From Anaeromyxobacteraceae bacterium (GTDB lineage: Bacteria; Myxococcota; Myxococcia; Myxococcales; Anaeromyxobacteraceae): a DNA stretch of 64,000 nt. The stretch spans positions 1,440,001-1,504,000 of the forward strand of contig JASGHJ010000002.1 of assembly GCA_047602405.1 (NCBI GenBank). The letters are read 5' to 3'. A program made the translations under genes and the position numbers. The notes beneath the pieces were generated by a model. That model saw only the letters and a list, made by a program, of their open reading frames with translations. It ran no database searches and was not told the DNA's origin. Shown piece after piece: positions 45,655 through 63,854 of this stretch (position 1 is the stretch's first letter; each line of letters opens with the position of its first letter).

Positions 45655-46074
45655 TCAGGGCCGCACCCCGGGCGCCGGCGCGGGCGGCTTCGAAGCCGGC
45701 TCCTGGTGGAGCTCGATCCGGCCGCGCCGGGCGCTCCCCTCCGGGCCGGCCTCGGCCGCGAGGTAGACCGGCCGCGCGGACGGCGCCATCGCGAGGCTGT
45801 CCTTGTTGCAGACCTCCACGCACACCCCGCAGGCGACGCAGCGCAGGTGCTCGAGGGCGAAGGTGCGGGCCTCCTTCGAGACCGCGATGGCGGCCGCCGG
45901 GCAGCGGCGAGCGCACAGCCCGCAGAAGACGCAGGACGCGATGTCGACGGCCACGTGGCCGCGGGCCAGCGGCACGGGCGGCCGGACCTCGGCCGGGTAG
46001 CGCCGGGTCGCGGGCCTCGAGACGAGGTTCCTGAGCGCGAGCGGCAGGAGCGGGAGCTTCAGCGGGTTCGCCAT
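45655..46074 (-). CDS. echF: Ech hydrogenase 2x[4Fe-4S] subunit (EchF/NuoI-like)
   Basis: TRRYP, CVFCGLCARRCP and CVACGVCVEVC motifs. Confidence 0.85.
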   Translation of the reverse strand: MANPLKLPLLPLALRNLVSRPATRRYPAEVRPPVPLARGHVAVDIASCVFCGLCARRCPAAAIAVSKEARTFALEHLRCVACGVCVEVCNKDSLAMAPSARPVYLAAEAGPEGSARRGRIELHQEPASKPPAPAPGVRP

Positions 46075-46076
46075 CG

Positions 46077-47168
46077 TCAGCGCTCCGTGCAGCTGATGCA
46101 GGGGTCGATCGTGAGGATGATGTTCGGGACGTCGGCGAGGTCGCAGTCCTTGAGGAGCTGGATCATCGCGGGCAGGTTGCCGAACGTGGGCGTGCGCGCC
46201 CGGAAGCGCTCCAGGAACTTCGTCCCGTTGCCGCGCAGGTAGTAGACGACCTCGCCGCGGGGCTGCTCGAGCCGGACGAAGGCCTCGCCCGACGGCGTGC
46301 CGCGGACCTTCGCGACGAGCGGCCCGTCGGCGGGCGGGATGCGCGCGATGGCCTGCTTCACGAGGTCGATGGCCTGGTCGAGCTCGCGCACGCGCACCTT
46401 GCACCGCGCCAGGCAGTCGCCGTCCTGCTCGAGGACGGGCTCGAAGGCGAGCTCGTGGTAGCGCGGGAAGTCCTCGTCCCCGCCCATCCGGACGTCGAGC
46501 GCCACGCCGGAGGCGCGCGCCATCGGCCCCACCGCGCCGGTGCGCACGGCCTCCTCGCGGGAGAGGTGGCCGACGCCGGCGAGGCGGTGGTGGATCGAGG
46601 CGTCCTCGAAGAAGACCTTCCTGACCTCGCGGAGGTCCTCGCGGAGCTGGTCGAGCGTCCGCTCGATGTGCTGGAGGGCGTCGGGCGCGACGTCCCGTGC
46701 CACGCCGCCGATCCGGTTGACCGAGAAGATGATGCGCCCGCCGGTGGTCTGGTCGAAGAGGTCGATGACCCGCTCGCGCAGCCGCCAGCAGTGCATGAAC
46801 AGGTTCTCGAAGCCGAAGCCGTCCGCCGCGAGCCCGAGCCACAGGAGGTGGCTGTGGATCCGCGAGAGCTCCGCCCAGATCAGCCGGAGCCACTGGGCGC
46901 GGGCCGGGACGTCGACCTTCATGATCCGCTCGACGCCCATCGCGTAGCCCATGCCGTGCATGAAGCTGCAGATGCCGCAGATGCGATCGGCGACGTTGCC
47001 GAAGTCGGTGAACTCGACCTTCTCGACCATCGCCTCGAGGCCGCGGTGGACGTAGCCGATGGCGGGCACCGCGTCGACCACGCGCTCGTCCTCGAGGACG
47101 AGGTCGAGCACGATCGGCTCGGGCAGCACGGGGTGCTGCGGGCCGAACGGGATGAACGTGCGCTTCAT
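46077..47168 (-). CDS. echE: Group 4 [NiFe] hydrogenase large subunit
   Basis: GPQHP, RICGIC (L1) and C-terminal DPCISCTER (L2) with no cleavable extension. Confidence 0.93.
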   Translation of the reverse strand: MKRTFIPFGPQHPVLPEPIVLDLVLEDERVVDAVPAIGYVHRGLEAMVEKVEFTDFGNVADRICGICSFMHGMGYAMGVERIMKVDVPARAQWLRLIWAELSRIHSHLLWLGLAADGFGFENLFMHCWRLRERVIDLFDQTTGGRIIFSVNRIGGVARDVAPDALQHIERTLDQLREDLREVRKVFFEDASIHHRLAGVGHLSREEAVRTGAVGPMARASGVALDVRMGGDEDFPRYHELAFEPVLEQDGDCLARCKVRVRELDQAIDLVKQAIARIPPADGPLVAKVRGTPSGEAFVRLEQPRGEVVYYLRGNGTKFLERFRARTPTFGNLPAMIQLLKDCDLADVPNIILTIDPCISCTER

Positions 47169-47546
47169 GACACCTTGCCCCGGGCGGCGAGCCGCTCCTT
47201 GATGGCCTTGCCGGAGAACGGGACCTTCCGGGAGGTCCGGTAGAGCTCGCCGCGGAAGTCGACGGTGAGCCCGGTCACGTCCACGCCGAAGAAGCTCGCG
47301 GATCTCGTTCTCGTAGAGGAAGGCGGACCCGAAGAGGGCCGACAGGCTCGGCACCCGCGCGCCGTGCTCGACCCGCTCGCGCAGGTGCTGGAGCTTGCCG
47401 CCCTGCTCGAAGGTCCAGACGAGGTCGACGTCGCCCTCCTCCTGGCCGGCCGCGGGCGGCAGGCCGGTCGCGTTGATGAGGACGAGCCGCCAGCCCGCCT
47501 TCGCGAGGCGCTCCGCCTCCCCGAGGAACCGCTCCGCGTCGATCAC
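47165..47546 (-). CDS. echD: EchD (NuoC-like) subunit; +1 frameshift near 47292
   Basis: VPSLSALFGSAFLYENEIREL, continuing FGVDVTG in the shifted frame; overlaps both neighbours. Confidence 0.8.
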
Positions 47547-47965
47547 GACTCCCTCCGCTTCCGCTCCAGGATCTCCACGCCCCGCAGGACCCCGTCGATG
47601 ATGCTCTCGGGGCGCGCGGCACAGCCGGGCACGTACGCGTCGACCGGGATCACCTGGTCGATGCCGCCCTTCACGTTGTAGGCCCGGGCGAAGATGCCCC
47701 CCGAGCTCGCGCAGGCGCCGACCGCGACCACGACCTTGGGGTCGGGCATCTGCCGGTAGAGGTTCTGGACCACGTCGACGTTCCGCTCGTTGACGCTGCC
47801 GGTCACGAGGAGGATGTCGGCGTGCCGCGGGTTGCCGGTGTTGATCACGCCCAGCCGCTCGGCGTCGTAGAGCGGCGTGAGGCAGGCGAGCACCTCGATG
47901 TCGCAGCCGTTGCAGCTCGAGGCGTCGTAGTGCAGCACCCACGGGGACTTCGACAGGGAGGACAC
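47543..47965 (-). CDS. echC: Hydrogenase small subunit (EchC/NuoB-like)
   Basis: SSCNGCDIE, NPRHAD, GACASSGG and VPGCAARPE motifs. Confidence 0.92.
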   Translation of the reverse strand: MSSLSKSPWVLHYDASSCNGCDIEVLACLTPLYDAERLGVINTGNPRHADILLVTGSVNERNVDVVQNLYRQMPDPKVVVAVGACASSGGIFARAYNVKGGIDQVIPVDAYVPGCAARPESIIDGVLRGVEILERKRRES

Positions 47966-47966
47966 G

Positions 47967-48822
47967 TCACCACCCCCGGAGGGAGACGAGGAGGGCGTTG
48001 CCGCCGGCGAGGAGCAGCGTCGCCGCCCAGGCCGAGCGCAGCATGAGCTGCCACGTCGCGCGCGCGGTGACGTTGTCCACGAGGATCTCGAGGAAGAGCG
48101 CCAGGAGGGCGGCGCCGATCGCGAGGGGCACGCTCCAGTTGAAGAAGAGGCAGGACGAACAGCCCCAGCAGCACGGTCTCGATCCAGTGGCCGAGCTCGA
48201 CCCAGGCGAGGAGGCGCGCCGACATGTCGGAGGTGAGCCCGCGCACGAGCTCCTGGTGGGCGTGGTGCGAGGTCGAGAGGTCGAAGGGCGACTTGCGCAG
48301 CTTGATGGTGACCACGACGAGGAACGCGAGGAGCACGCCCGGCAGCGCGAGCGCCACCTTGACCGGCGAGGCGAGGACGCCGGGCAGGGTGCTCGCGCCG
48401 GTCACGCGGCAGACGAGCGCCGCGAGCAGGATGAGGAGCGGCTCGGTCGCGAGCAGCGCCACGAGCTCGCGCTCGGCCCCCGCCGAGCCGAACGGCGAGT
48501 CCGCCGACCCGGCCGCGAGCGTGAGCAGGAGGGAGGAGAGGGCGAAGACGAAGGTGGCGAGGAGGAGGTCGCCGCCGCCGACGACGAGCGCGCCGGCGAG
48601 GGCCATCGTGACCACGTGCCCGAGGAGCAGCGGCTCGGCGAGGCCGTTCACCGTGCGGACCTCCTTCGAGAGGAGCTTGCCGAGGTCGAAGAACGGCTGC
48701 AGGAGCGGCGGCCCGATCCGGCCCTGCATGCGGGCGGTGACGACCCGGTCGGCGCCGGCGAGGAGGCCGCCGGCGAGCGGGGCGAGGAGGACGAACGCGA
48801 GGGCGGACAGGAGCGGGCTCAC
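47967..48822 (-). CDS. echB: EchB (NuoH-like) membrane subunit; +1 frameshift near 48150
   Basis: DRVVTARMQGRIGPPLLQPFFD and KLRKSPFDLSTSHHAHQELVRG motifs. Confidence 0.87.
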
Positions 48823-50744
48823 GGCTTCACCACCGCGCCGAGGAGGAGGGTCGCGGCGACGACCACGGCACCGAGGGCCGCGCCGGCGCGGAACACGCGC
48901 CCGCCGTCGAGGAGGCCCCGCAGGTAGAAGTTGCGCGTCGAGAGCTCGCGCGCGCCCCCGCGCGGGGACGAGACCGTGTGCGAGGCGGAGACGGTCCGGC
49001 CCGAGACGTAGATGCCGCCGAGGTCGTGGGTGGGCCGCACCGTGAGACGCCACGCGGCGAGGGGCAGGAACGCGGTGGCCACCACCAGCGCCGGGGCCAT
49101 CCAGGGGTCGAGCGCGAGGAGCGGTCCCTCGCCCCCGGGGAGCGCGGCCTGGACCCACGGGGACACGACCGCGCTCGAGAGCACGCCCACGCCGCCGGCG
49201 AGCCCGAGCACGAGCGCGGCGTGGGTGGTCTCGGCGAACCACTCGAACCCGCTCACGCGGGCCTCGATGGCGCGCTCGGGCTCCGGGATCGCCCGGGTCG
49301 CGAGGACCTTCAGGAGCAGCTTCGCCCAGTAGTAGAGGGTGCAGCCGCTGCCGAACGAGAGCACGAGGAGGGCGACCGCGCCCGCCCACCCCGGGAGCAT
49401 CAGGAAGGCGCGGATGGCGGTCCACTTCGCGATCACCACGCCGAAGGGCGCGATGAACATGCCGGCGATGCCGGTGAGCGCGAGCACCGCCACCCGGGGG
49501 AGCCGCGAGACGAGGTGGTCGAGGTTCTCGAGGTCCTTCGTGTAGAAGCGGTTCTCGAGGGTGCCGACGACGAGGAAGAGCAGGCTCTTCGCGACCGCGT
49601 GGAAGATCACGAGCATCACCGCCGCCCAGAGCGCCACCGCGTTCGCGAGGCCGGCGCACGCGACGATGAGCCCGAGGTTCGCGAGGGTCGAGCAGGCGAG
49701 CACCTTCTTCGCGTTCTGCTCCCCGACCGCCACGAGCGAGGCGGTGAGGAACGTGAGGAGGCCGACGGTCGCCACGCCGCCGCCGACGACCGTGCCGGCC
49801 ATGGCGGGGGCGAGCCGGATGAGGAGGAAGACGCCCGCCTTCACCATGGTCGAGGAGTGGAGCAGGGCGGAGGTGGGCGTGGGCGCGTACATGGCGCCGA
49901 GGAGCCAGGACGAGAACGGCAGCTGCGCGCTCTTCGTGAGCCCCGCGAGGGCGAGCAGGCCGAGCGCCGGGACCGCGGCGGGGCCGAGCGCGCCGGAGGC
50001 GAGCGTGGCCACGTCGAGCCCGCCGGGGATGCGCGCGAGGAGGAGGATGGCGACGGCGAAGCCGAGGCCGCCGAGGAGGTTCAGCTCGAGGGCCCGGAAC
50101 GCGTACCCGATCGTCTCCTCGGTGCGCGTGTAGCCGATGAGGAGGAACGAGCAGAGCGTCGTCACCTCCCAGAACAGGTACAGGTGCGGCAGCTCGTTCG
50201 CGACGACGAGGCCGAACATCGCCGAGACGAACACGAACAGCAGGAAGAAGAACGAGGTGCGCCGGCCGGCGACCTGCGGGTGCTGCCGGTGGTAGTCGCG
50301 CATGTAGCCGAGCGCGTGGACGCAGATGAGCGTCCCCAGGATCCCGACGATCGCGATCATGACCACAGAGAGGTGATCGACGCGGAGCGCGCGGCCCTCG
50401 ACCGCCTCGGGGTGGCCGGTCCACTCGAGCCAGGCGCCGATCCCGAACTGCGCGACGGCGAGGGCCGGGGCGAGGGGCCGGCGGTGCCGGAGGCCCAGGC
50501 CGACGACGAGCAGGGCGAGCGCGGCCTCCACCGCGAGGACGAGGTGCGGCGGCAGCTCTACCGGCGCCGCGAGGAAGGCCGGGCCGGTCCCGGCGAACTC
50601 GACCGCGACGGCGAGCGTGGCCGCCGCCACAGTCACGCAGGCGGCGAGCACCACCGCGGTGCGGCGCGCCGGCCGGGTGGTGAAGAGCAGCGCGGCGCTC
50701 GCGGCGAGCGGGACGAGGAGGAGCGTGACGAGGAGCGGGAGCAT
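48819..50744 (-). CDS. echA: EchA (NuoL/Mrp antiporter-like) membrane subunit
   Basis: FWEVTTLCSFLLIG, KSAQLPF, APTPTSALLHSSTMVKAG and FHAVAKSLLF motifs. Confidence 0.9.
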   Translation of the reverse strand: MLPLLVTLLLVPLAASAALLFTTRPARRTAVVLAACVTVAAATLAVAVEFAGTGPAFLAAPVELPPHLVLAVEAALALLVVGLGLRHRRPLAPALAVAQFGIGAWLEWTGHPEAVEGRALRVDHLSVVMIAIVGILGTLICVHALGYMRDYHRQHPQVAGRRTSFFFLLFVFVSAMFGLVVANELPHLYLFWEVTTLCSFLLIGYTRTEETIGYAFRALELNLLGGLGFAVAILLLARIPGGLDVATLASGALGPAAVPALGLLALAGLTKSAQLPFSSWLLGAMYAPTPTSALLHSSTMVKAGVFLLIRLAPAMAGTVVGGGVATVGLLTFLTASLVAVGEQNAKKVLACSTLANLGLIVACAGLANAVALWAAVMLVIFHAVAKSLLFLVVGTLENRFYTKDLENLDHLVSRLPRVAVLALTGIAGMFIAPFGVVIAKWTAIRAFLMLPGWAGAVALLVLSFGSGCTLYYWAKLLLKVLATRAIPEPERAIEARVSGFEWFAETTHAALVLGLAGGVGVLSSAVVSPWVQAALPGGEGPLLALDPWMAPALVVATAFLPLAAWRLTVRPTHDLGGIYVSGRTVSASHTVSSPRGGARELSTRNFYLRGLLDGGRVFRAGAALGAVVVAATLLLGAVVKP

Positions 50745-51212
50745 CTAGCGGCCTCGACGGTGGGGCGCGCCGGCCGGGGCGCGGGAGGTCTCTTCCAGGA
50801 GGTGCTCGACCGCCTCGACGAGGACGGCGGGGGCGAGCGGCTTCTCGACGTAGCGGTGCACGGGGAGCCAGCCGTCGCGGTCCTGCGCCTCGAGGTCGGC
50901 CTCGTCGAGGTGGTCGTCCACGCCCGTGAGCATCAGGATTGGCGTGGCCGGGTGGGCCTTCGCCATCCAGCGCGCGAGCTCGAAGCCCGCGTCGAAGCGC
51001 TCCATCATCACGTCCAGGATCAGGAGGTCCGGGCGGAGCGCTTCCACGGCGGTGCGCCCCTCCGCGGCGGAGTGGGCGACCGAGGCGCGGTGGCCCGCCG
51101 CCTCGAGGACCGCCCGGTGCCGGGCGACGAGGTCGACGTCGTCGTCGACGATCAGGACGTGGGCGTGCGGGGCTTCGTGGACCGCGGACACGTGCGTGCC
51201 TTTCTCGGCCAC
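50745..51212 (-). CDS. Stand-alone response regulator receiver, first gene of the ech operon
   Basis: LIVDDD, LDVMM, MLT and EKP motifs; start codon uncertain. Confidence 0.85.
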   Translation of the reverse strand: MAEKGTHVSAVHEAPHAHVLIVDDDVDLVARHRAVLEAAGHRASVAHSAAEGRTAVEALRPDLLILDVMMERFDAGFELARWMAKAHPATPILMLTGVDDHLDEADLEAQDRDGWLPVHRYVEKPLAPAVLVEAVEHLLEETSRAPAGAPHRRGR

Positions 51213-51280
51213 GGAGGGTGGCCAGGAGGTGGTGCGGAGCCTCCACGCGGACCGGACGCCGGGCCGCCGCCGGGCCCTGG

Positions 51281-51297
51281 AGCAAAGTTCCGGCCAA
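51281..51297 (-). promoter_or_regulatory. Sigma54 (-24/-12) promoter of the receiver-ech operon
   Basis: Minus strand reads TTGGCCGGAACTTTGCT (GG-N10-GC). Confidence 0.7.
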
Positions 51298-51542
51298 CGC
51301 GAGGGCCCGGGCAGACCTGGGGCATTTCACCCAGGCCCGGCCGCGATCGGCGTCTGGCGGGCCGCGACCGGCGACGCGGGCCGTGAACCGGGACGCGCGA
51401 CCGCTCCACGGGTCATGGCGCGGAGGTGTGGCGTTGCGCCGCGCCACGGCGCGCGCTGCGCGATCACGCAGAATCCGCGCGTCCCGCACCCGTTTCGCGG
51501 TGGGTGCGGGCATTGCAGGGCACGACGTGAGGAGGATTTCGC

Positions 51543-53558
51543 ATGGAAACCGGGGTCTCGGATCGGAGGGCCGGCGCACGCGATGCGGAGCCCGCGCTCG
51601 TCTTCACGGCCGGGGACCGCTGCCGCCTCTGCTTCACGTGCCTGCGCGAGTGCCCGGCGAAGGCCATCCAGGTCAAGGGAGGCCAGGCGGCGGTCGTGTC
51701 GGAGCGCTGCGTCGCCTGCGGCCACTGCGTGCGGGTGTGCAGCCAGGGGGCGAAGCAGTACCGGCGGGACGTCGACGAGGTGCGGGCCCTGCTCGCCTCC
51801 GGCGCGCGCGCGGCGATCTGCCTCTCCCCCGTGTTCCCCGTGGAGTTCGACGACGTCCCGGAGCCGCGCCTCCTGGGCCGGCTCCGTGCCCTCGGCTTCG
51901 CGTTCGTGGTGGACGCCGGCTTCGGCAACGACCTCGTCGCGCGCGCCTACCGCGAGCTCCTCTCGCCGGAGGGGGGCGGGCGGCGCCGCATCGCCACGAC
52001 CTGCCCGGCCATGGTCGGCTACGTCGAGCGGTTCCACCCGGCGCTCGTCCCGGCGCTCGCGCCGGTGGTGTCGCCGATGGTGGCGATCGCGCGGTGGCTC
52101 CGCGCGGAGCACGGCGAGGACCTCCAGGTCGTCTACGCGGGCCCGTGCGTGGCGAAGAAGGCCGAGCGCCGGGCCCCGGACGTCGCGGGCGACGTCGCCC
52201 GGGTGCTCACCTTCGACGAGCTGCGGGAGCTGTTGCGGGGCGCGCCGGGCGACGCACCGGACGGCGGGTTCGACGGCCCGGCCGGCTTCGGCGCCCCGCT
52301 GAAGGTCCAGCTCGGCAGGCCGGGGGCGCGGCCGCGCCCGCCGCACGCGGTGGTCTCGGCCGACGGCCGGCTCCGGGCCTACGAGGCGGTCGAGGAGGCC
52401 GCCTCCGGCGCGGTCGAGGCGGAGCTCCTGCACCTGCTCTCCTGCCGCGGCTGCGTCGAGGGCCCGGGCTGCACGACCCGGGCGCCGCACTTCGCGCGGG
52501 TCGGGGCGCTCTCCCGCCACGCGCGGGAGCGGCTGACCCGCTTCGACGAGCCCGCCTGGACGCGCCGGCTGGACGCGGCCGAGGCGCTCCCGCTCGACCG
52601 GACGTTCGCCGCGCGCGACGTGCGGCAGAGGGCGCCGAAGGACGCGGTGCTGGACGGGATCCTCGCTCGCCTCGGCAAGGCGCGGCCGCAGGACGAGCTC
52701 AACTGCGGCGCCTGCGGGTACGAGACCTGCCGCGGCCTCGCCCGGGCGATCCACGCCGGGCTGGCCGAGCCCGACATGTGCCTCCCGTCGAGCGTGGAGC
52801 ACCTCCGGGCGGCCCTCTCCGACCTCGCCGACGCGAACCAGCGGCTCGCGAGCACGCAGGACGCGCTCGCGCACGCGGAGCGGCTCGCCAACCTCGGCCA
52901 GCTCGCCGCGGGCGTGGCCCACGAGCTCAACAACCCGCTCGGCGTCATCCTCGTCTACGCGCACCTCCTCCTCGACGCCTGCCCGCCCGAGCGACCCGAC
53001 CGCCCGGATCTCGCGCTCATCGCCGAGCACGCCGACCGCTGCCGCCGGATCGTGAGCGGCCTCCTCGACTTCGCCCGGCAGAACAAGCTCGTGGTGCAGG
53101 CGGTGGACCTCCCCCGGCTCGTCGCGAACGCGCTCCGCGCCGCGCCCCCGCCCGCCGGGATCGAGGTGGTCACGGCGCACGCGGGCGACCCGGTGGCCGC
53201 GCTCGACCGGGACCAGCTCGCGCAGGTGCTGGCGAACCTCGTCGGGAACGCCTACGACGCGATGCCCGAGGGCGGGCGCCTCACCGTGCGGACCTCGGGG
53301 GACGCGGATCGCGTGCGGATCGAGGTCGAGGACACCGGCACCGGGATCCAGCCCGAGCACCTCGGCCGGGTGTTCGAGCCGTTCTTCTCGACGAAGCCCA
53401 TCGGGCGGGGCACCGGCCTCGGGCTCGCGGTCTGCTACGGGATCGTGAAGGTCCACCGCGGCGAGCTCGCGGTGCGCTCGAACGCGGACCCGGCCCGCGG
53501 GCCGCGGGGGACGACCTTCAGCGTGGTGCTGCCCCGCCGGGTGGAGGCGTCGCCGTGA
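51543..53558 (+). CDS. [FeFe]-hydrogenase-like (HydS/group C type) sensor histidine kinase
   Basis: 2x[4Fe-4S], H-cluster-like motifs TTCP / GPCVAKKAE / SCRGC, FeS domain NCGACGYETC..C, then AHELNNPL HisKA and HATPase. Confidence 0.85.
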   Translation: METGVSDRRAGARDAEPALVFTAGDRCRLCFTCLRECPAKAIQVKGGQAAVVSERCVACGHCVRVCSQGAKQYRRDVDEVRALLASGARAAICLSPVFPVEFDDVPEPRLLGRLRALGFAFVVDAGFGNDLVARAYRELLSPEGGGRRRIATTCPAMVGYVERFHPALVPALAPVVSPMVAIARWLRAEHGEDLQVVYAGPCVAKKAERRAPDVAGDVARVLTFDELRELLRGAPGDAPDGGFDGPAGFGAPLKVQLGRPGARPRPPHAVVSADGRLRAYEAVEEAASGAVEAELLHLLSCRGCVEGPGCTTRAPHFARVGALSRHARERLTRFDEPAWTRRLDAAEALPLDRTFAARDVRQRAPKDAVLDGILARLGKARPQDELNCGACGYETCRGLARAIHAGLAEPDMCLPSSVEHLRAALSDLADANQRLASTQDALAHAERLANLGQLAAGVAHELNNPLGVILVYAHLLLDACPPERPDRPDLALIAEHADRCRRIVSGLLDFARQNKLVVQAVDLPRLVANALRAAPPPAGIEVVTAHAGDPVAALDRDQLAQVLANLVGNAYDAMPEGGRLTVRTSGDADRVRIEVEDTGTGIQPEHLGRVFEPFFSTKPIGRGTGLGLAVCYGIVKVHRGELAVRSNADPARGPRGTTFSVVLPRRVEASP

Positions 53559-54724
53559 CGCCGGCCGCCGCCGACGGGCCGCTCACCCTCTCGGTGCTCG
53601 TCGTGGACGACGAGCCCGGGATGCGCCTCGGGGCGGCCCGGGTGCTCGCGGGCTTCCGCTGCGCGCCGCCGGAGGCCGAGGGGCGGGAGGTCGCGCTGCG
53701 GGTCGAGGCCGTCGAGACCGGCGAGGCCGCGCTGGAGCGCATCCGGGCGGAGCGGCCCGACCTCGTGCTCCTCGACGAGCGGCTGCCGGGGCTCTCGGGG
53801 CTGGAGGTCCTCGCCCGCCTCGCGGCCGAGGCGCCCGAGGTGCTCACGGTCATGGTGACCGCCTACGCGACGCTCGGGGCCGCCGTCGCCGCGACGAAGC
53901 GCGGCGCGTTCGACTTCCTCGCGAAGCCGTTCACGCCCGACGAGCTCAGGGCCACCGTGGAGAAGGCGGTCCGGCACGCCCTGCTCCTGCGGCAGGCGCG
54001 CCGCCACGCCGACGAGCGCCGCCGCATCCGGTTCGAGTTCGTGTCGGTGCTGGCGCACGAGCTCAAGGCGCCGCTCTCCGCGGTGGAGGGGAACCTGCTC
54101 GACATGGAGGCCGGCGTGTTCGGCCCGGACCTCGCGAGCTACCGGGCCTCGGTCGCGCGCGGCGTCGAGCGGCTGCGCGGGATGCGGCGGCTCGTGGCGG
54201 ACCTGCTCGACCTCACCGCCATCGAGTCCGGGGAGCGCCGCCGCGCGCTCGTCACCCTCGAGGTCGGCGCGGTGGCGGCGGCCATCCTCGACGGGTTCTC
54301 GCGGGCCGCTGGGGAGGCGGGCGTCGCGCTCCGGCTGGCCCCCGCGGACCCGGTCTGGGCCGAGGTCGACCGGCGCGAGCTCGAGCTCGTCCTCACGAAC
54401 CTCGTCGACAACGCCATCAAGTACAACCGGCGCGGCGGCCGCGTGGAGGTCGCGGTGGCGCCGGTCGATGGCCGGGTCCGCGTGGTGGTGGAGGACACCG
54501 GCATCGGCATCGCGCCGGAGGAGGCCGCGGGCCTCTTCAAGGAGTTCGTCCGCGTGCGCACCGCCGAGACCCGGCACCTGCCCGGCAGCGGCCTCGGGCT
54601 CGCCACGGTCCGCAAGGTCGCGCAGCTCTACGGGGGCGACGCCACGCTCCGGAGCGAGCCCGGCGCGGGCACGCGCGTCGAGGTCGAGCTCGGCCCGGTC
54701 GCGGCAGGGCCCCGGGGGAGCTGA
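53555..54724 (+). CDS. Hybrid response regulator-histidine kinase (REC-HisKA-HATPase)
   Basis: VVDDE, LLDERLPG, KPF, then AHELKAPL, NAIKYN, DTGIG and GSGLGL; GTGA overlap with the upstream kinase. Confidence 0.9.
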   Translation: MTPAAADGPLTLSVLVVDDEPGMRLGAARVLAGFRCAPPEAEGREVALRVEAVETGEAALERIRAERPDLVLLDERLPGLSGLEVLARLAAEAPEVLTVMVTAYATLGAAVAATKRGAFDFLAKPFTPDELRATVEKAVRHALLLRQARRHADERRRIRFEFVSVLAHELKAPLSAVEGNLLDMEAGVFGPDLASYRASVARGVERLRGMRRLVADLLDLTAIESGERRRALVTLEVGAVAAAILDGFSRAAGEAGVALRLAPADPVWAEVDRRELELVLTNLVDNAIKYNRRGGRVEVAVAPVDGRVRVVVEDTGIGIAPEEAAGLFKEFVRVRTAETRHLPGSGLGLATVRKVAQLYGGDATLRSEPGAGTRVEVELGPVAAGPRGS

Positions 54725-54757: not shown

Positions 54758-56494
54758 TCAGGGCGTGTAGACGCCCGCGGTGAGCCCCTTCGCCGCGCCG
54801 TCGACGGTCACGGTCCCGTGGCTGCCCGCGGGCGTACCCGTCGCCCCCTTCACCGAGAGCGCGCCGGCGAGCGTGGAGGTGCCGCCGGAGCTGTGCACGG
54901 TCACGAGACCGCCGTTGCCGCCGGCGCCGCCCGCTCCCGGCGGCCCGCCGTTCGCGAGCACCTTCGGCGCCGCGACGGTCTTGCCGCTCAGCCAGACCTC
55001 GTTCCCGTGGCCACCCTGACCGCTCGCGGCCGTGGCCCTGCCGCCGAAGGACTCGATCCCGGGCTCGATGCTCAGGGTGCCCGCGGGGGAGGGGGCCGCG
55101 CCCGCCACGGCCTGCGAGTACACCGAGAGCGGCCCGGCGTCGCCGCCCGCCTGCGCGCCGTCGCCGCCGTTCGCGAGGAGCGCGTCCAGGCCGGTGACGA
55201 CGAGGGGACCGGAGGTGCCCGGCGCGACCTCGTTCTGCCAGACCTGGAGCTCGCAGAGGCCGCCGCTCCCACCCACCTGGCCGTCGCCACCGGTGGCGTC
55301 GAGGCCGGCGTGCACGTACGCCGCGAGCGTGCCGCCCGAGCGGGCGGAGAGCGTGCGGCTCTGGAGGCCGATCTCGCCGCCGTCGCCGCCCTGGCCCACG
55401 GTGGCGCTGCCGTCGCCGCCCGCGGAGCGCGCCTCTCCCAGGAACCAGAGCGCGTCGTTCACCGCCTGGACGTCGATGTCGCCGCCGTTCCCGCCCTGGC
55501 CCGCGGAGGCGGCGCCGCCGCGCGTGTCGAGCGCGCCGGTCACCACGACGAAGCCCGCGCAGCTCGCGACCCGCAGGGACCCGCCGGGTCCGCCCGCGAC
55601 CGTGCCCGCGCCGCCGCGGTTCTCGACGGGGCCCGTGACGGCGACGTCGCCCTCGCCGGGCGTGTTGGAGTAGCAGGGGATGATGAGGCTGACGTAGCCC
55701 GCCTCACCGCCGGGCCCCGCCGTGCCCGCGCCGCCGCTCGCGCGGATCGTGCCCGCCTGGAGCCACGCCACCGAGCCCGCCTCGAGGACGATCTGGCCGC
55801 CTTGCCCGCCGGAGGTCCCGTCGCCGCCCCGGCCGTCGATGAGGCCCCGGTTCGTGATGCCCTCGACCGTCTCCACCTGGAGGGAGCCGCCCGTGCCGCC
55901 GGGGGCGCCGGTCAGCTCGACGACGCCGGTCTCGCTCACGTGCAGGGCGCGCGCGACGAGGCGCACGAAGCCGCGGTTCGCGGGCTGGGCCGCGCGGTAG
56001 TGCAGCCGGAGCGTGCCGTCGACGACGATCCCGTCCGCGAGGCGGATCGTCGCCCAGTCGCCCGCGTTCGGCGCGAGCGTGACGGTCGCGCCGGCCTTCA
56101 CCCAGAGCCCGGTGGCCGCGCCGGCCTGATCGCCCGGGACGTGGTCCGACAGGTCCGGCTGGAGGGTCGTGCTCGCGGCGAGGGTCCGCGGGTTCGCGCC
56201 CAGGCCCGGGACGCCGGGCGAGAGCGTCGGGGCGGCGGGCACGGTGGTCGACTTCTTCACCTGGATGTCGCCGCCGTACGAGACGATCCTCACCTCGCCC
56301 CCGGGCCCGCCGGCCGTGGCGCCGTCTCCACCGCGGGTCCAGCCACCGGCTGACGCGGTGGGATCCGAGCCGCCTCCGCCCCCTCCGCCCCCTCCACCTC
56401 CACCTCCGCCCCCTCCTCCTCCGCCGCCCCCGCCCCCACTGCAGGCGGCGAGGAGCGCGAGGGCGAGGGTGACGACGGCCGCATGGCGGGGCAT
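54758..56494 (-). CDS. Glycine-rich surface lipoprotein (repetitive beta-solenoid-like)
   Basis: Lipobox LLAAC, about 23 consecutive Gly, and repeated GG-x-G...GGxGGxI units; ATG 56494 with GAAGGAG RBS. Confidence 0.7.
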   Translation of the reverse strand: MPRHAAVVTLALALLAACSGGGGGGGGGGGGGGGGGGGGGGGSDPTASAGGWTRGGDGATAGGPGGEVRIVSYGGDIQVKKSTTVPAAPTLSPGVPGLGANPRTLAASTTLQPDLSDHVPGDQAGAATGLWVKAGATVTLAPNAGDWATIRLADGIVVDGTLRLHYRAAQPANRGFVRLVARALHVSETGVVELTGAPGGTGGSLQVETVEGITNRGLIDGRGGDGTSGGQGGQIVLEAGSVAWLQAGTIRASGGAGTAGPGGEAGYVSLIIPCYSNTPGEGDVAVTGPVENRGGAGTVAGGPGGSLRVASCAGFVVVTGALDTRGGAASAGQGGNGGDIDVQAVNDALWFLGEARSAGGDGSATVGQGGDGGEIGLQSRTLSARSGGTLAAYVHAGLDATGGDGQVGGSGGLCELQVWQNEVAPGTSGPLVVTGLDALLANGGDGAQAGGDAGPLSVYSQAVAGAAPSPAGTLSIEPGIESFGGRATAASGQGGHGNEVWLSGKTVAAPKVLANGGPPGAGGAGGNGGLVTVHSSGGTSTLAGALSVKGATGTPAGSHGTVTVDGAAKGLTAGVYTP

Positions 56495-56688
56495 GGACTT
56501 CTCCTTCACCCAGGGTTCCCGCGAGTGTAAAGGCGCCGGCGCGGGGCCGCACGGCCGCGACCTCGGAGGGTGCCCTGTGACGGGCGTCACGGCAGGCGCC
56601 TTCTCGGGGCGTGCATTTGCGGTCACTCGGCGGCGCTTCGTAGGATCGGGCCTCGCGTCCCTGCCCCTGCGGGCGCCTCGGGGGAACC

Positions 56689-57585
56689 ATGCGCCGCCTG
56701 CTCACGCCCTTCCTCGCCGCCGCGCTCGCGACGGCGGCCTGGCCGTCCCGGGCCTCCGGCCCCGCCGACGGCGACCGCGGCCCGGTCATCGATCGCGCCG
56801 ACGCCGACGCCGCGAAGGCGCACCTGTTCATCCGCGGGCGGAACCTCGGGCGCCACGGGCCCACCGTCACGCTCGGCAACGTGCCGCTCGAGATCGAGAG
56901 CGCGTCGCCGACCGACGTCGTCGCGCGGCTGCCGTCGCCGCTCCCCGACGCGAGCTACCGGCTCGTGCTGACGACCGGTGGCCGGCGCGAGGAGCGCTCG
57001 TTCCACGGCGGCGGTGGGAGGGACGCCTGGGGCGAGGCGGTGTTCGAGGTCGCGATCGGCGCCGGGGAGCCGGGGCCGGTCGGGCCCACGGGCCCGACGG
57101 GGCCGGCGGGCCCGCAGGGCGCGAAGGGAGACAGGGGCGATCCGGGCCCGCAGGGCGCCCAGGGCCTCGCGGGCGCGCCCGGCGCGAAGGGCGATCCGGG
57201 GCCGGCCGGGGCCGCGGGCGCCACCGGCCCGACCGGCCCGACCGGCCCCGCCGGTCCGCAGGGGCCGAAGGGCGACAAGGGCGACCCGGGGTCCGGGACG
57301 GTGGACGCGCGGTTCGGGAACGACACGAACACCTTCGCGGAGGGGCGCGGCCGGGAATGCACGCTCGGCGAGATCATCCTGAGCGCGAGCGCCGTCGTGA
57401 ACGGGGTGCCCGCGAACGGCCAGATCCTCTCGATCAGCCAGAACACGGCGCTCTTCTCGCTGCTCGGCACGATGTACGGCGGGGACGGCCGCACCACCTT
57501 CGCGCTCCCGGACCTCCGCGCCGTCGCGCCGAACGGGCTCACGTACTCGATCTGCGTGAGCGGGATCTTCCCGAGCCGGAACTGA
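56689..57585 (+). CDS. Secreted collagen-like protein with C-terminal phage tail-collar domain
   Basis: Signal peptide, Ig/IPT-like segment, 25 Gly-X-Y triplets, and [35 protein letters not shown]. Confidence 0.85.
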
Positions 57586-57798: not shown

Positions 57799-58689
57799 TC
57801 AACCCGGTCGGCCCGCGAGCCGCTCGCGGATCATCGCGAGCACCGCCTCGCGCTCGGCGCCGGCGATCGCGAGGCGCGGCGCACGGACGCGCTCCGAGCC
57901 GAGCCCGACCACGTCCTGCGTGAGCTTGATGAGCTGGACGAACTTCGGGACCACGTCGAGCCGGAGGAGCGGCAGGAACCACCGGTAGAGCGCGTCGGCC
58001 TCGGCGTGCTTACCGGCGCGCGCGAGGTCGAAGAGGCGGACCGACTCCTCGGGGAGCGCGTTCACGAGGCCGGCGACCCAGCCCGTCGCGCCCGCGGCGA
58101 TGCCCTCCACGATGAGGTCGTCGACGCCCACGAAGAGCGCGAGCCGGTCGCCGATGAGCGCGCGGATCGCGGCGAGGCGGCGGACGTCGGCCGAGGACTC
58201 CTTCACCGCGGCGAGGTTCGGGTGGCGCCGGGCGAGCTCGGCGACCTGCTCGGGGCGCACGTCGGTCCCGTACGCGATCGGGTTGTTGTAGAGCATGCAC
58301 TCGAGCGGGGTCGCCTCGATCACCGCCGAGAAGTGCGCGAGGGTCTCGCGGTCGTCGCCCCGGTAGACGTACGGGGGCAGCACCATCAGGCCCTCGGCGC
58401 CGACCTCCCGGGCGCGGCGGGCGAGCGCGACCGCCTCGTGCGTCGAGAGCGACGCGATGCCGGCCACGAGCGGCGCCCTGCCGCGGAGCGCCTTCGCCGA
58501 GAGCTCGAGGATCCGGACCTTCTCGTCGAAGGAGAGCGTCGCCGACTCGCCGAGCGAGCCGAGCGCGACGAAGCCCTTGCAGCCGGCGGCGAGCATCGCC
58601 TCGAGGTGGCGAGGGATGAAGCCCTCGTCGATCGAGAGGTCCTCCTTGAAGGGGGTGGTGAACGCGGGGAAGACGCCTTGCCAGTTCAT
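57799..58689 (-). CDS. DHDPS-family enzyme, likely Delta1-pyrroline-4-hydroxy-2-carboxylate deaminase
   Basis: GSLGE, LPPYVY, YNNP and VKESS motifs; hydroxyproline-cluster context. Confidence 0.85.
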   Translation of the reverse strand: MNWQGVFPAFTTPFKEDLSIDEGFIPRHLEAMLAAGCKGFVALGSLGESATLSFDEKVRILELSAKALRGRAPLVAGIASLSTHEAVALARRAREVGAEGLMVLPPYVYRGDDRETLAHFSAVIEATPLECMLYNNPIAYGTDVRPEQVAELARRHPNLAAVKESSADVRRLAAIRALIGDRLALFVGVDDLIVEGIAAGATGWVAGLVNALPEESVRLFDLARAGKHAEADALYRWFLPLLRLDVVPKFVQLIKLTQDVVGLGSERVRAPRLAIAGAEREAVLAMIRERLAGRPG

Positions 58690-58696
58690 TCGGGGT

Positions 58697-59989
58697 TCAC
58701 TCCTCGAGGAGGGTGGAGAGGGCGACGGGGACGATGGGGCTGCGGGGCGTTGCGGGCTCGAGGCCGCGGAGCCGCTCGAGGGCGGCGCCGCAGACCCGGC
58801 CCTGGCACGGGCCCATGCCGGTGCGCGTCGCGAGCTTCGCCTCGCGGGCGGAGGTGGCCCCGGCGGCGTCGAGCTCGCCCGCGCGGACGTCCTCGCACCG
58901 GCAGACGACGAGGTCGGGCGCGAGCGGGCGGAGGAGCTCGGGGCGGAGGGCGTAGGCGCGGTCCATCGCGCGGGCGAAGTCGCGGCCCGTTCGGCGCTCG
59001 GCCACGGGCGCCGGCTCGGGCGGGAGGCCCGCCGCGGCGAGCCCCGCGAGCTGGCCCTCGGCGAGCGCGACCTCCACGCCGGCGACGCCGCAGAGCTCGC
59101 CCGCGGCGAACAGGCCCGGCACCGAGGTCTCCTGGTGATCGTTCACGGCCACCGCGCCGCCGGAGGCGGCGGCCCCGAGGAGGCGCGCGGCCTCCGCGGA
59201 GGGCACGAGGCCGAAGGACACCCCGAGGAGCTCGCAGGCGAGCCGCTCCTCGCGCCGGCCGTCGGTGAGGACCACGGCCTCGACGCCGCCCGTGCCCTCG
59301 GCGCGCACGATCCAGGTGCCGGCGCGGAGCCTCGACCCGAGGGTGCGCCCGAGGCGCAGCGCCTGGCCGAGCTTGCCGGGCTTGCCGAGGAGGCGGAGCC
59401 CGAGGCCCGCGAGCGCGGCGGTCCCGGCCTGCTCGGCGACGGCCACGACCTCGGCGCCCGCGTGCTCGAGCGCCTCGGCAGCGGCGAGGAGGAGCGGCCC
59501 CGTGCCGCCGAGCACGATCCGCTTGCCCCGCACCTCGAGGCCCCCCTTCACGAGCGCCTGCAGCCCGCCCGCGCCCGCGACGCCGGGCAGGGTCCAGCCC
59601 GGGAAGGGCAGGAGGAGCTCGCGGGCGCCGGTCGCGAGCACGACGGCGCGGGCGTCCACGTCGAGGCGGACGGGGCCGCCGCCCTCGCGGTGCTCGGCGG
59701 AGAGCCGGAAGCCGTCGCCCGCGCACCGCGCCTCGAAGAGGGCCGCGTGTCGCAGGACCTCGGCGCCCGAGCGGGAGAGGCGCTCGAGCCAGGGGCGCGC
59801 CTCGGCCGGCGGCGCGCCGGCCGGCGCGTGGCGCCAGATCTGGCCGCCCGGCCCGAACCCCTCGTCGAGCACGGCGACCTTGCGGCCGCCCTCCGCGGCG
59901 CGGCACGCCGCGGCGACGCCGGCCGGGCCGGCGCCCACCACGCAGACGTCGGCCGCGAGGCGGCGTCTCGAGGGGCGGGCGGCGCTCAT
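58697..59989 (-). CDS. FAD/NAD oxidoreductase subunit of D-hydroxyproline dehydrogenase (HcnB/OoxA-like)
   Basis: GAGPAG, GGQIWR, LATGARE, CRCEDV and GMGPCQGRVC motifs. Confidence 0.85.
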   Translation of the reverse strand: MSAARPSRRRLAADVCVVGAGPAGVAAACRAAEGGRKVAVLDEGFGPGGQIWRHAPAGAPPAEARPWLERLSRSGAEVLRHAALFEARCAGDGFRLSAEHREGGGPVRLDVDARAVVLATGARELLLPFPGWTLPGVAGAGGLQALVKGGLEVRGKRIVLGGTGPLLLAAAEALEHAGAEVVAVAEQAGTAALAGLGLRLLGKPGKLGQALRLGRTLGSRLRAGTWIVRAEGTGGVEAVVLTDGRREERLACELLGVSFGLVPSAEAARLLGAAASGGAVAVNDHQETSVPGLFAAGELCGVAGVEVALAEGQLAGLAAAGLPPEPAPVAERRTGRDFARAMDRAYALRPELLRPLAPDLVVCRCEDVRAGELDAAGATSAREAKLATRTGMGPCQGRVCGAALERLRGLEPATPRSPIVPVALSTLLEE

Positions 59990-60258
59990 CCGGTCACGAC
60001 CTCCATGCCGGCGCGCACGGGCTCGAGGCAGGCGCGCCGGTCGCGGGCGCCGTCCACGGTGACGCGGCACTCGTGGCAGATGCCCATGCCGCAGACCGGG
60101 CCGCGGGGCTCGCCCGAGGCGGAGCGCCGGAATGCCGTGACGCCGGCGTCGAGGAGCGCCGCGGCGAGCGTCTTCGCCGGCGAGACGCTGAGCGCGCGCC
60201 CGTCGACGTGGATCACCACGTGCGGCGGCGCGGGGGCGGGTGGCGTGCGGTCAGGCAT
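59986..60258 (-). CDS. [2Fe-2S] subunit (HcnA-like)
   Basis: PVCGMGICHECRVTVDG..RAC motif. Confidence 0.85.
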   Translation of the reverse strand: MPDRTPPAPAPPHVVIHVDGRALSVSPAKTLAAALLDAGVTAFRRSASGEPRGPVCGMGICHECRVTVDGARDRRACLEPVRAGMEVVTG

Positions 60259-61363
60259 GGGCGGTGGGCGTGCGGATGGGCGAGTACGGCGCGGGATCGA
60301 GCGGTCCGCGCCGGCCGAGCACGAGGTCGGCGACGAGCTCGCCGGTGCCGGGCGCGGTCGTGATCCCGAGCCCCTCGTGGCCGGCGGCGACGAGGAGGCC
60401 GTCGATGGCCGGGTACCAGCCGACGAGCGGCAGGTTGTCGGGCGTGCACGGCCGGAAGCCGCACCACGTGCGGAGGGCGGGCACGCCGGCGAGCCCGGGC
60501 AGGAAGTCCATCGCGCGCGCCAGCATCCGCGCGCGCAGCGGCGCATTGAGCGAGGCGTCGAGCCCCACGAACTCGCGGGAGGAGCCCACGAGGAGCTGCC
60601 CGGTCGCGCGCGGCTGCACGTTGAACGCGACGCTCTCGGCGCCGCCGCCGTGGGCGCTCTTCAGGTACCCGAGCTCGACGAGCTGGTGCCGGACCATGCC
60701 CGGGACCCGCCCGGTCACGACGAGCTGGCCCTTGCGCGGCCGGAGCGGCAGGGTCGGCACGAGCCGCGCCGCGGCGAGCCCGGCCGCGAGCACGACGGCC
60801 CCCGCGTCCATCCAGCCCGCAGCGGTCCGCACGCGCCGCGGGCCCAGCTCGAGCACCTCGACGCCGCCGCGCACCTGCGCGCCGAGCCCGACCGCGCGCG
60901 CGAGGAGGAAGCGGGCGGCGGCGGGCGGGTAGAGGACCCGGTCGCCGGGGACGAGCATGCCGCCCGCGAGCCCCGCCCGGAGGGACGGCTCGGCCTCGGC
61001 GAGGGCGCGGGCGTCGAGCAGCTCCGCGGCGACGCCCGCGGCGCGGTAGGCGGCGGCGCGCGGGGCGACGAGGCGGAGCTCCTCGTCGTCGGAGGCGACC
61101 CAGAGCGTGCCGCAGGCCGAGTCCTCGGCGCCGCGCGGGAGCTCGGGCGCGAGCGCTGCCCAGAGGTCACGGCTGCGCCGGGTGAGGGCGAGCTGGGCCG
61201 GGCCGTCGTCCATCACGACCACGTGCCCCATCGCGGCGGCGGTCGCGCCGCCCGCGGGGAACCCCGCCTCGAGCACGAGCACGCGCAGCCCCGCGCGCGC
61301 GAGCGCGTCGGCGCAGGCCGCGCCCACGATGCCGGCGCCCACGATGACCGCGTCGGGGCTCAT
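60251..61363 (-). CDS. FAD-dependent D-amino acid oxidase-family subunit (D-hydroxyproline dehydrogenase)
   Basis: GAGIVG, PRKGQ, GFRP and GHEGLGITTA motifs. Confidence 0.87.
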   Translation of the reverse strand: MSPDAVIVGAGIVGAACADALARAGLRVLVLEAGFPAGGATAAAMGHVVVMDDGPAQLALTRRSRDLWAALAPELPRGAEDSACGTLWVASDDEELRLVAPRAAAYRAAGVAAELLDARALAEAEPSLRAGLAGGMLVPGDRVLYPPAAARFLLARAVGLGAQVRGGVEVLELGPRRVRTAAGWMDAGAVVLAAGLAAARLVPTLPLRPRKGQLVVTGRVPGMVRHQLVELGYLKSAHGGGAESVAFNVQPRATGQLLVGSSREFVGLDASLNAPLRARMLARAMDFLPGLAGVPALRTWCGFRPCTPDNLPLVGWYPAIDGLLVAAGHEGLGITTAPGTGELVADLVLGRRGPLDPAPYSPIRTPTAHA

Positions 61364-62342
61364 CGCGCCGAGGCGGGCTCCAGGATGCCCTCGGCGCCCA
61401 GCCCCGCGCGGAAGGGATCCGCGGGATTCGAAGAGGAGGGTCGTGCGCCCGGTCACGAAGGCCCGGCCCTGGATGCGGGGCCAGAGCTGCCCGTCCCGCT
61501 CCTCGAGCCAGCCCACGAAGCGGCTGCCGGTGATGCTCTCCTGCCGCCAGCGCTCGCCGGGGCGGAGCTTCCCGTGCGCGTGCAGCGCCGCCATCTTCGC
61601 GCTCGTGCCGGTGCCGCAGGGGCTGCGGTCGTACTCGCCACCGGGGCAGAGCACCCAGTTCCGGGCGTCGGCGTCCGGCCGCGAGGGCGGGCCGAAGAAG
61701 CTCGACGTGGTCGATCTCCGCGCCGTCGGCGCCGGTCACGCCCTGCACGCGGAGCGCGCGCATGATCGCGGAGGACACGTCGAGGAGCCGGTGGCGGTTC
61801 TCGAGCGCGAGCCGCTCGCCCTCGAGGTGCGCGAGGAAGAACCAGTTGCCACCCCAGGCGACGTCGCCGCGGATCCGCCCGAGGCCGGGCACCTCGACCT
61901 CGACGTCCGTCCGGTGGCAGCGGGCGGGGACGTTCTCGATCGTGACGAGGCCCTCCGCGGCGAGCTCGGCGGCCACGGAGCCGGCGGGCGTGTCGACCGC
62001 GATCCGCCCGGGGCCGATGCGCCCGAGGAACTCGAGCGTGCGGACGAGGCCGATGAGGCCGTGGCCGCACATCCAGAGCGGGCCGACGTTGTTGAAGAAG
62101 ACCACCCCGCAGTGGGCGCCGGGCGTCACGGGCGGCGTGAGGAGCGCCCCCACCACGGCGTCGTGGCCGCGGGGCTCGAGCACGACCCCGCGGCGGAGCG
62201 CGTCGAAGCGGGTCGCGACCTCCTCGCGGCGCCCCGGCATCGTCGGGGAGGCGAGCGCCGGCCAGCCGTCCACGACCACGCGCGTGGGCTCGCCCTCCGT
62301 GTGCGAGTCGACGACGTCGATCCGCGCGGGCAACCCGGTCAC
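61360..62342 (-). CDS. 4-hydroxyproline epimerase/proline racemase; two +1 frameshifts near 61698 and 61427
   Basis: DSHTEGEPTR, MCGH, GGNWF and DRSPCGTGTSA catalytic Cys pair, found across three frames. Confidence 0.88.
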
Positions 62343-63775: not shown

Positions 63776-63854
63776 GGCGGTCCTCCGGATCATGCCCCGG
63801 CGCGCGCGCGTCCGCTTGTCGTTTCGCGCAGCCCGTGCTTCGCTTTCGGCACAG

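Follow-up and report, generated by a model that had tools for sequence, protein, structure and literature searches.

The window analysed here, 64,000 nucleotides of contig JASGHJ010000002.1 from an Anaeromyxobacteraceae bacterium, carries between positions 45655 and 54724 a divergent locus in which the genes for a sensor histidine kinase with an [FeFe] hydrogenase-like domain and its receiver-kinase partner face an operon for a [NiFe] Ech hydrogenase. An initial annotation of this DNA had drawn the same divergent map, and we found every gene at its place and on its strand; the proposed Myxococcota-like host agrees with the names of close relatives. Our sequence comparisons suggest that the kinase is likely a group C1-type [FeFe] sensor that has lost the di-iron cofactor and is not an H2 sensor, and that it likely controls the adjacent Ech hydrogenase.

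The divergent locus and the Ech operon

The soluble sensor histidine kinase (51543..53558, + strand, 671 residues) combines two Fer4 clusters, an [FeFe] hydrogenase domain (H-domain), a C-terminal Cx2Cx4Cx16C iron-sulfur (Fe-S) motif formed by C388, C391, C396 and C413, a coiled coil, HisKA with His460, and HATPase. These parts were recognized by a Fer4 pair, PF02906 (above its cut-off), PF04060 and the two kinase profiles, and the H, N and G boxes are intact. The four H-cluster cysteines, C154, C202, C301 and C304 (C300, C355, C499 and C503 of the hydrogenase CpI), are present and invariant. No PAS domain was matched in the kinase, and a helix from residue 414 to 479 runs unbroken from the Fe-S motif to HisKA. 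The start of the next gene, which encodes a receiver-kinase hybrid of 389 residues (53555..54724, + strand) with Asp74, His168 and the N and G boxes intact, overlaps the kinase stop.

On the opposite strand, the ech operon opens with a gene for a lone receiver of the Ech-linked receiver family (50745..51212, − strand, start possibly at 51191), whose acceptor Asp67 is intact and whose stop abuts the echA ATG. A sigma-54-type promoter sequence, TTGGC-N7-TTGCT, was found by pattern match at 51281..51297 (− strand), facing the receiver and echA to echF. All ech genes lie on the − strand. EchA (48819..50744, PF00361/PF00662) is an antiporter-like, ion-pumping subunit, close relatives of which are labelled 'ech hydrogenase subunit A' by the Joint Genome Institute; echB (47967..48822, PF00146) encodes a NuoH-like membrane subunit, echC (47543..47965, PF01058) a small Fe-S subunit with 64-81% identity to EchC from other Ech loci, and echD follows at 47165..47546. 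The [NiFe] large subunit EchE (46077..47168, PF00346/PF00374) has both nickel motifs, RICGIC and DPCISC, intact (C64/C67 and C357/C360) and ends in CTER with no cleavable tail. EchF (45655..46074) is a ferredoxin-like subunit for two [4Fe-4S] clusters, with Fer4 Pfam matches and eight cysteines that are invariant in alignment A8. Six subunits in the order echABCDEF with a single antiporter-like subunit, counting echB and echD after a one-base correction, correspond to group 4e Ech.

The correction concerns one surplus base in each of echB (near 48151) and echD (near 47292), both at GCTCTTC. The motif also marks the junctions in five sigma-54 activator genes that are split. Counted over the whole genome, there are 30 copies of GAGCTCTTCGGC and 12 of its one-base-longer form (12 of 42 ELFG-coding sites affected), compared with 13 copies and 1 longer form for the control GAGCTGTTCGGC (1 of 14 sites). 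Because GCTCTTC is an error motif throughout the genome and both surplus bases are missing from the contigs of a related strain (run X1), we read them as very likely assembly or sequencing errors, probably the result of a methylated motif being misread in long reads. Since the insertions recur genome-wide, many apparent pseudogenes of this assembly may be false.

Third-codon G+C at the locus (0.98-0.99) is like that of core genes, and HypF, the one hyp gene profiled, scored above cut-off in the genome. The host also has what we take, from reading the sequences, to be a group 1-type uptake [NiFe] hydrogenase with hyp genes (G000:C1:1949209-1950810) and a group 3-type bidirectional [NiFe] hydrogenase (G000:C2:833388-834623). 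Beside the locus, at 54758-57585, lie genes for a glycine-rich protein with no Pfam match and a divergent collagen-repeat/tail-collar protein, both of which are also found in the closest relative, G010. Further along, at 57799-63793, is presumably a set for hydroxyproline/proline catabolism (aldolase-like, FAD oxidoreductases and a proline racemase-like gene with a frameshift), named from the translations alone.

Sensor family, di-iron pocket and maturases

The sensor part of the kinase has at least 3187 relatives at an E-value of 1e-30 among 7992 scored. In our trees, the kinase is nested among canonical kinase-fused group C members, a placement by descent and not by the HydDB classifier, and it is 47-58% identical to them. 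We examined the gene neighbourhoods of this family in the best 80 of 184 confirmed metagenome loci. Directly upstream of the kinase was hydA of a bifurcating enzyme (45 of the 59 loci with enough flank), downstream was the receiver-kinase hybrid (46 of 50), and a lone receiver adjoined the kinase in 47 of the 80; Ech was present at none of the 80. Translations of twelve loci, with genes named from recognized motifs, suggest the usual order rex-hydC-hydB-hydA-(receiver)-kinase-(receiver)-hybrid-hydE-hydG-aspA-like-hydF. HydDB describes [FeFe] group C1 as 'histidine kinase-linked (putative)' (PMC5037454), and in Elusimicrobia a kinase-fused group C hydrogenase is reported beside a trimeric group A enzyme and Rex (bioRxiv 10.1101/765248). 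Because the family loci match both, the three signalling genes of the window represent a known cassette that normally serves [FeFe] enzymes. The Atlas also has a cluster of 76 Bacillota members in which sigma-54 activators are joined to this same sensor module of Fer4, H-domain and Fe-S motif. Among the structure-search matches listed, none was a solved structure of a hydrogenase that belongs to group C or is fused to a kinase.

Together with P0002, P0241 and P0003, the window's kinase forms a derived clade (67-80% identical, support 100), the sister of which in the kinase-module tree is the canonical kinase P0018 (98/91). The metagenome loci listed, at least 184 of them confirmed, included no derived-clade member, and a degenerate DNA pattern for the clade gave 0 matches in GTDB contigs, a set from which the host genome is possibly missing.

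The derived clade differs from 190 canonical rows in the pocket that holds the di-iron site in CpI, the numbering of which we transferred through an alignment to 4XDC. Of the cavity residues listed for CpI (PMC10147833), five are changed in the window's kinase: A230, S232, I268, F417 and V423 correspond to Ser95, Val97, Ala125, Leu253 and Arg259. The motif A-P-S (CpI A230-P231-S232), with Ala in 100% and Ser/Thr in 100% of the 190 rows, has become S95-P96-V97 (51825..51833, + strand). Segment 244-275 (52272..52367, + strand), which is equivalent to CpI F417-V423 and reads FPxxGxL in canonical members, is shortened and rewritten; its length is 32 residues in the window's kinase, as against 29, 29 and 35 in the other derived members and 36-37 in all 190 canonical rows, its exact register being uncertain. 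A simple deletion of FPxxGxL was considered and dropped, as the segment shows substitutions as well as shortening and its alignment is ambiguous. The third H-cluster motif, HLLSCRGC (52431..52454, + strand), keeps both cysteines and carries His297 in the CpI E495 column, which is Glu in 88% and Asp in 12% of the canonical rows and His in 4/4 derived rows.

At six anchor columns, with allowed residues set from the canonical rows, derived rows deviated at 3-6 and 189 of the 190 canonical rows at none. All four derived rows also scored below all 190 canonical rows against the H-domain profile (z-scores −4.6 to −4.7), with normal scores for the kinase module (−0.5 to −1.1). This test is conservative because the canonical set was picked by likeness to the window's kinase. 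The PF02906 score was 101.7 bits, versus 137.5-174 bits for 16 orthologues, and the stem leading to the derived clade measured 0.70 in the H-domain versus 0.24 in the kinase module. All 16 Fe-S cluster cysteines are nevertheless retained across the clade, along with the kinase motifs, and five new clade-specific residues, V97, D124, Y198, H297 and L399, are fixed across its proteins. Conservation of the H-domain core inside the clade is within the canonical range, with 17-29% of matched canonical pairs lower. The AlphaFold model of the kinase retains the fold at a mean predicted local distance difference test (pLDDT) value of 89; a dip at residues 251-270, in the altered segment, reaches 72/65, versus 92/90 in P0018, which lacks the dip. 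Fold searches returned [FeFe] hydrogenases and kinases, and the template modelling score to canonical Atlas models was 0.95.

The host genome is 98.38% complete. In it, the kinase is the sole PF02906 protein, and no catalytic [FeFe] enzyme was found. HydG gave no profile match in this genome, HydF gave only GTPase-domain matches below cut-off, and HydE gave one weak radical-SAM match, also below cut-off; tblastn of five maturases from family loci against the genome yielded at most 67 bits, and no match for HydG. All other genomes bearing an orthologous kinase contained HydG (22 of 22): 12 of 12 among 400 genomes of the phylum (11 above cut-off and one split in two) and 10 of 10 genomes of the Elusimicrobiota class, both groups with catalytic-type enzymes too. 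HydG was found in none of five congeners (98-100% complete), and because these near-complete genomes also lack it, its absence from the host fits the lineage. The initial annotation had proposed cross-class sensing of H2 or redox. The redox half of that proposal fits, and H2 sensing by an H-cluster is not supported, given the altered pocket and the failure to find HydE, HydF or HydG.

Linkage to Ech and routes of output

This Ech was found in none of 36 congeners and in none of the 400 genomes of the phylum. In G010, the whole 9 kb block is missing, and other genes occupy the slot between flanks of about 92% DNA identity; from their translations, we take the contents of this 3 kb slot (L228:8469-11506) to be a truncated sigma-54 activator fragment, a MoeB/ThiF-like gene and an unknown gene.

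We then turned to other phyla, using the best 80 of 597 GTDB Ech loci, 11 of which begin with a receiver gene. Two of the 11, both from Elusimicrobiota (L127 and L128; 5702-14835), have the order receiver-kinase-hybrid-receiver-echABCDEF with the pocket intact, and both genomes contain HydG and a second kinase copy beside hydA. At the other nine (L117-L125; eight Chloroflexota and one Elusimicrobiaceae), the acceptor Asp of the receiver is replaced by Glu in 9/9, and no kinase was found in the flanks or among the PF02906 matches of their genomes. Neither HydG nor this kinase was found in the eight Chloroflexota genomes, and the kinase was not found in any of 251 genomes from the Chloroflexota class to which the nearest Ech belongs, a set with no positive control. 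Receivers at hydA loci have the acceptor Asp in 30/30 scored. Most of the Chloroflexota loci with a Glu receiver also have hypA/hypB-like genes pointing away from ech.

The window's receiver groups with the Ech-linked receivers (support 98), and its EchA belongs to the same subfamily. Receivers with 77% likeness to that of the window occur on contigs that measure 8696 and 6339 bases, as do the contigs of the kinases P0002 and P0241, and another receiver, 71% alike, has contig sizes equal to those of the nearest EchA. The longest contig of P0018, 131602 bases, is of the same size as that of the EchA P0132, a member of the same EchA subfamily. In the contigs of the related strain (run X1), none of those listed spans receiver and kinase; one spans the intergenic DNA and the kinase start. 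A single origin of the window's kinase and the Elusimicrobiota ech kinases was rejected by an approximately unbiased (AU) test (p = 0.012; 30 rows, quick tree, no mixture model), from which we conclude that the kinase arrived at Ech, or was exchanged there, on more than one occasion. Thus, the tie between the signalling genes and Ech that the initial annotation had drawn is borne out by its recurrence at the Elusimicrobiota loci, in the receivers that accompany derived kinases and in the EchA subfamily. Conservation of the pairing in relatives, which had been put forward as its test, fails within the genus and phylum samples and holds across phyla.

How the signal would reach Ech is less direct than the phosphorelay of the initial annotation, a term that proved too loose: the locus encodes two kinases and two receivers, and no histidine phosphotransfer (HPt) module or DNA-binding domain was found in it, with partners elsewhere in the genome possible. 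No Rex was found in the host genome. The genome contains rpoN and about 35 sigma-54 activators, and the promoter sequence at 51281..51297 is the only match to its pattern in the window; the genome has 17 matches in all, of which 15 are intergenic according to a crude gene caller. No sigma-70 promoter was found at the locus, and no convincing intergenic repeat. That the receiver gene always comes first in these ech operons, and that its product is Glu-locked elsewhere, points to a possible second route that acts on Ech itself; a complex prediction of the receiver with EchE, EchC and EchF scored 0.00 and speaks neither for nor against it.

Mechanism, alternatives and known systems

The explanation that we favour, and that we consider somewhat more probable than the opposite, is that the kinase, with four [4Fe-4S] clusters and without a di-iron site, reports the redox state of ferredoxin or the presence of O2 and switches Ech by phosphotransfer from His460 to both the hybrid and the lone receiver. 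From the cofactor content onward, each step (cofactor, signal and target) is one that we infer. Electron exchange with ferredoxin at the two Fer4 clusters, or their reaction with O2, would determine how reduced the H-domain cubane and the C-terminal cluster are, and this in turn would tune autophosphorylation of His460 through the coiled coil. Phosphate would then move to two aspartates, Asp67 of the lone receiver and Asp74 of the hybrid, in the latter case switching the hybrid's own kinase. Output to Ech would be through a sigma-54 activator encoded elsewhere and acting at 51281-51297, through the co-transcribed receiver acting on Ech, or both. Because reduced ferredoxin is the substrate of Ech, such a ferredoxin gauge would turn Ech on when there is work for it.

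Several observations weigh against this explanation. For the derived clade, the absence of maturases was examined in a single genome, three of its four members being metagenome proteins, and the congener G001 has HydG and a catalytic-type [FeFe] hydrogenase side by side (G001:C21:248154-255013), an exception among the congeners sampled. The Fer4 and C-terminal Fe-S domains have drifted as well (z-scores −2.1 to −3.7), and Fer4 identity inside the clade is below that of 93-100% of matched canonical pairs, which could reflect a general relaxation. The matches in contig size are indirect and do not imply adjacency, and no full-length EchA was found on the contigs of 8696 or 6339 bases among the best 120 listed. 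We settled on the sigma-54 pattern with the site already in view, and, loose matches apart, it was not found ahead of the receiver or cassette in 20 other loci. A further objection is that the kinase may still sense H2, with a di-iron site supplied by an unknown route independent of HydEFG and the changed pocket a tolerated variant. The equivalents of CpI P231, S323, P324, P354, K358 and E361 are retained, K205 (K358), E208 and S177-P178 among the kinase's own residues and with them the four H-cluster cysteines; archaea and some eukaryotes are reported to have active [FeFe] enzymes without HydEFG (PMC11216029); and TmHydS and TamHydS function with altered pockets, that of TamHydS tolerating much change (PMC8163306). 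We nevertheless regard H2 sensing as quite improbable, as HydG accompanies the kinase in 22 of 22 other genomes, and the changes fall on columns that are 92-100% conserved and on a segment of fixed length, including V423 to Arg.

The sensor domain might instead sense nothing and serve as a folded scaffold that fixes the kinase in one state, such that the receiver is always phosphorylated or always dephosphorylated, like the Glu-locked receivers. The change from Asp to Glu at all nine kinase-less receiver-ech loci means that this Ech subfamily tolerates a locked output, and all sensor domains of the clade have drifted to some degree; however, the 16 cluster cysteines and V97, D124, Y198, H297 and L399 are fixed across proteins that are 67-80% identical, and the upkeep of four clusters would be costly for a scaffold, so we consider this unlikely. 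It is very improbable that the kinase and hybrid stand beside ech by chance and signal to unrelated targets, with only the receiver belonging to Ech. Such a reading would accommodate the lack of Ech at the 80 family loci, the descent of the kinase from A3-linked kinases, separate from the Elusimicrobiota ech kinases according to the AU test, and the many sigma-54 activators of the genome, but the 9 kb are missing from G010 as a single block, the Ech-type receiver travels with derived kinases, and the Asp-to-Glu change tracks the absence of the kinase. Least credible of all is a decaying relic in which ech is broken by real frameshifts and the kinase drifts after the loss of its hydrogenase partners. 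Although the assembly has echB and echD out of frame, none of the 36 congeners has the locus and the stem to the derived clade is long in the H-domain compared with the kinase module, the frameshifts follow the genome-wide error motif and are missing from the related strain, all catalytic motifs are intact, third-codon G+C is that of core genes and conservation inside the clade is near normal.

The window's kinase and P0018, the canonical sister, form a natural pair, different mainly in the di-iron pocket and with autophosphorylation as a built-in readout; they would permit a direct test of whether signalling needs the di-iron site, and the maturase-less form could come from an ordinary expression host without cofactor chemistry. 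Surveys that count PF02906 matches as H2 sensors will miscount such proteins. The locus also offers a candidate regulator for Ech.

Control of [NiFe] hydrogenases by a hydrogenase-related sensor is known from the HupUV/HoxBC-HoxJ-HoxA systems, in which such a sensor, a kinase and a sigma-54 activator act together. The window resembles them in having a hydrogenase-related sensor, a kinase, probably a sigma-54 activator and a [NiFe] target, and differs in that its sensor has the [FeFe] fold. None of the three [NiFe] large subunits of the host genome is a group 2b H2 sensor, as defined in PMC5037454.

With group C1, the window's kinase shares the fusion of H-domain and histidine kinase, the lack of PAS, Thr for the proton-relay Cys299, Gly for Met353 and the same receiver and hybrid partners. 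Unlike group C1, it has a rewritten di-iron pocket and a host without detected HydEFG or catalytic [FeFe] enzyme, and its linkage is with Ech and a sigma-54 site in place of rex-hydCBA-hydEG(aspA)F. It thus appears to descend from group C1 but to fail two features of working members, namely host maturases and a conserved pocket. Two N-terminal [4Fe-4S] motifs, the H-domain and Cx2Cx4Cx16C are also found in TmHydS (group C, M2f) and TamHydS (group D, M2e), which bind the full H-cluster and turn over H2 slowly, TmHydS signalling via PAS (PMC8163306); in contrast, the window's protein has a kinase fused to it and probably lacks the di-iron site. In the literature, group C proteins are treated only as putative H2 sensors (PMC5520028, PMC6776011), and their sensing of H2 versus cell redox is still termed putative (PMC8924675, PMC5037454). 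Our search of the accessible literature returned no account of a maturase-less kinase-fused hydrogenase or of one beside Ech.

Cross-class control has a precedent because deletion of the hfs sensory [FeFe] operon of Thermoanaerobacterium saccharolyticum lowered ech expression (PMC8924675 citing Shaw et al. 2009), although HfsB of that organism is of the PAS and phosphatase type, acts in trans and has a host with catalytic [FeFe] enzymes (PMC8924675, PMC11837493). The novelty of the cross-class pairing described in the initial annotation is reduced by this precedent and by the intact form in two Elusimicrobiota. The Ech itself resembles group 4e (PMC5037454) in the echABCDEF order, intact nickel cysteines, lack of an endopeptidase tail and HypF in the host. 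Unlike typical group 4e operons, those of this Ech subfamily open with a receiver gene.

In eukaryotes, the hydrogenase fold is reused with the cubane only and no di-iron site in Nar1/NARFL (IOP1), a protein of cytosolic Fe-S assembly. By analogy, the window's kinase may work like Nar1, with the fold reused with the cubane alone; Nar1/NARFL has no kinase fusion and belongs to a separate lineage, and we compare the two by description alone. We give even odds to the broader proposal that, in a bacterial lineage, a putative H2-sensing [FeFe] hydrogenase turned into a cofactor-free Fe-S redox sensor after the loss of maturases and came to control a [NiFe] Ech hydrogenase. If so, one Ech subfamily would present three stages, an intact H-cluster kinase (Elusimicrobiota), an H-cluster-less kinase (this genome) and no kinase with a Glu-locked receiver (Chloroflexota), and the window's kinase would be a bacterial parallel of Nar1 in which the Fe-S relay, and not an H2-binding site, can drive group C signalling.

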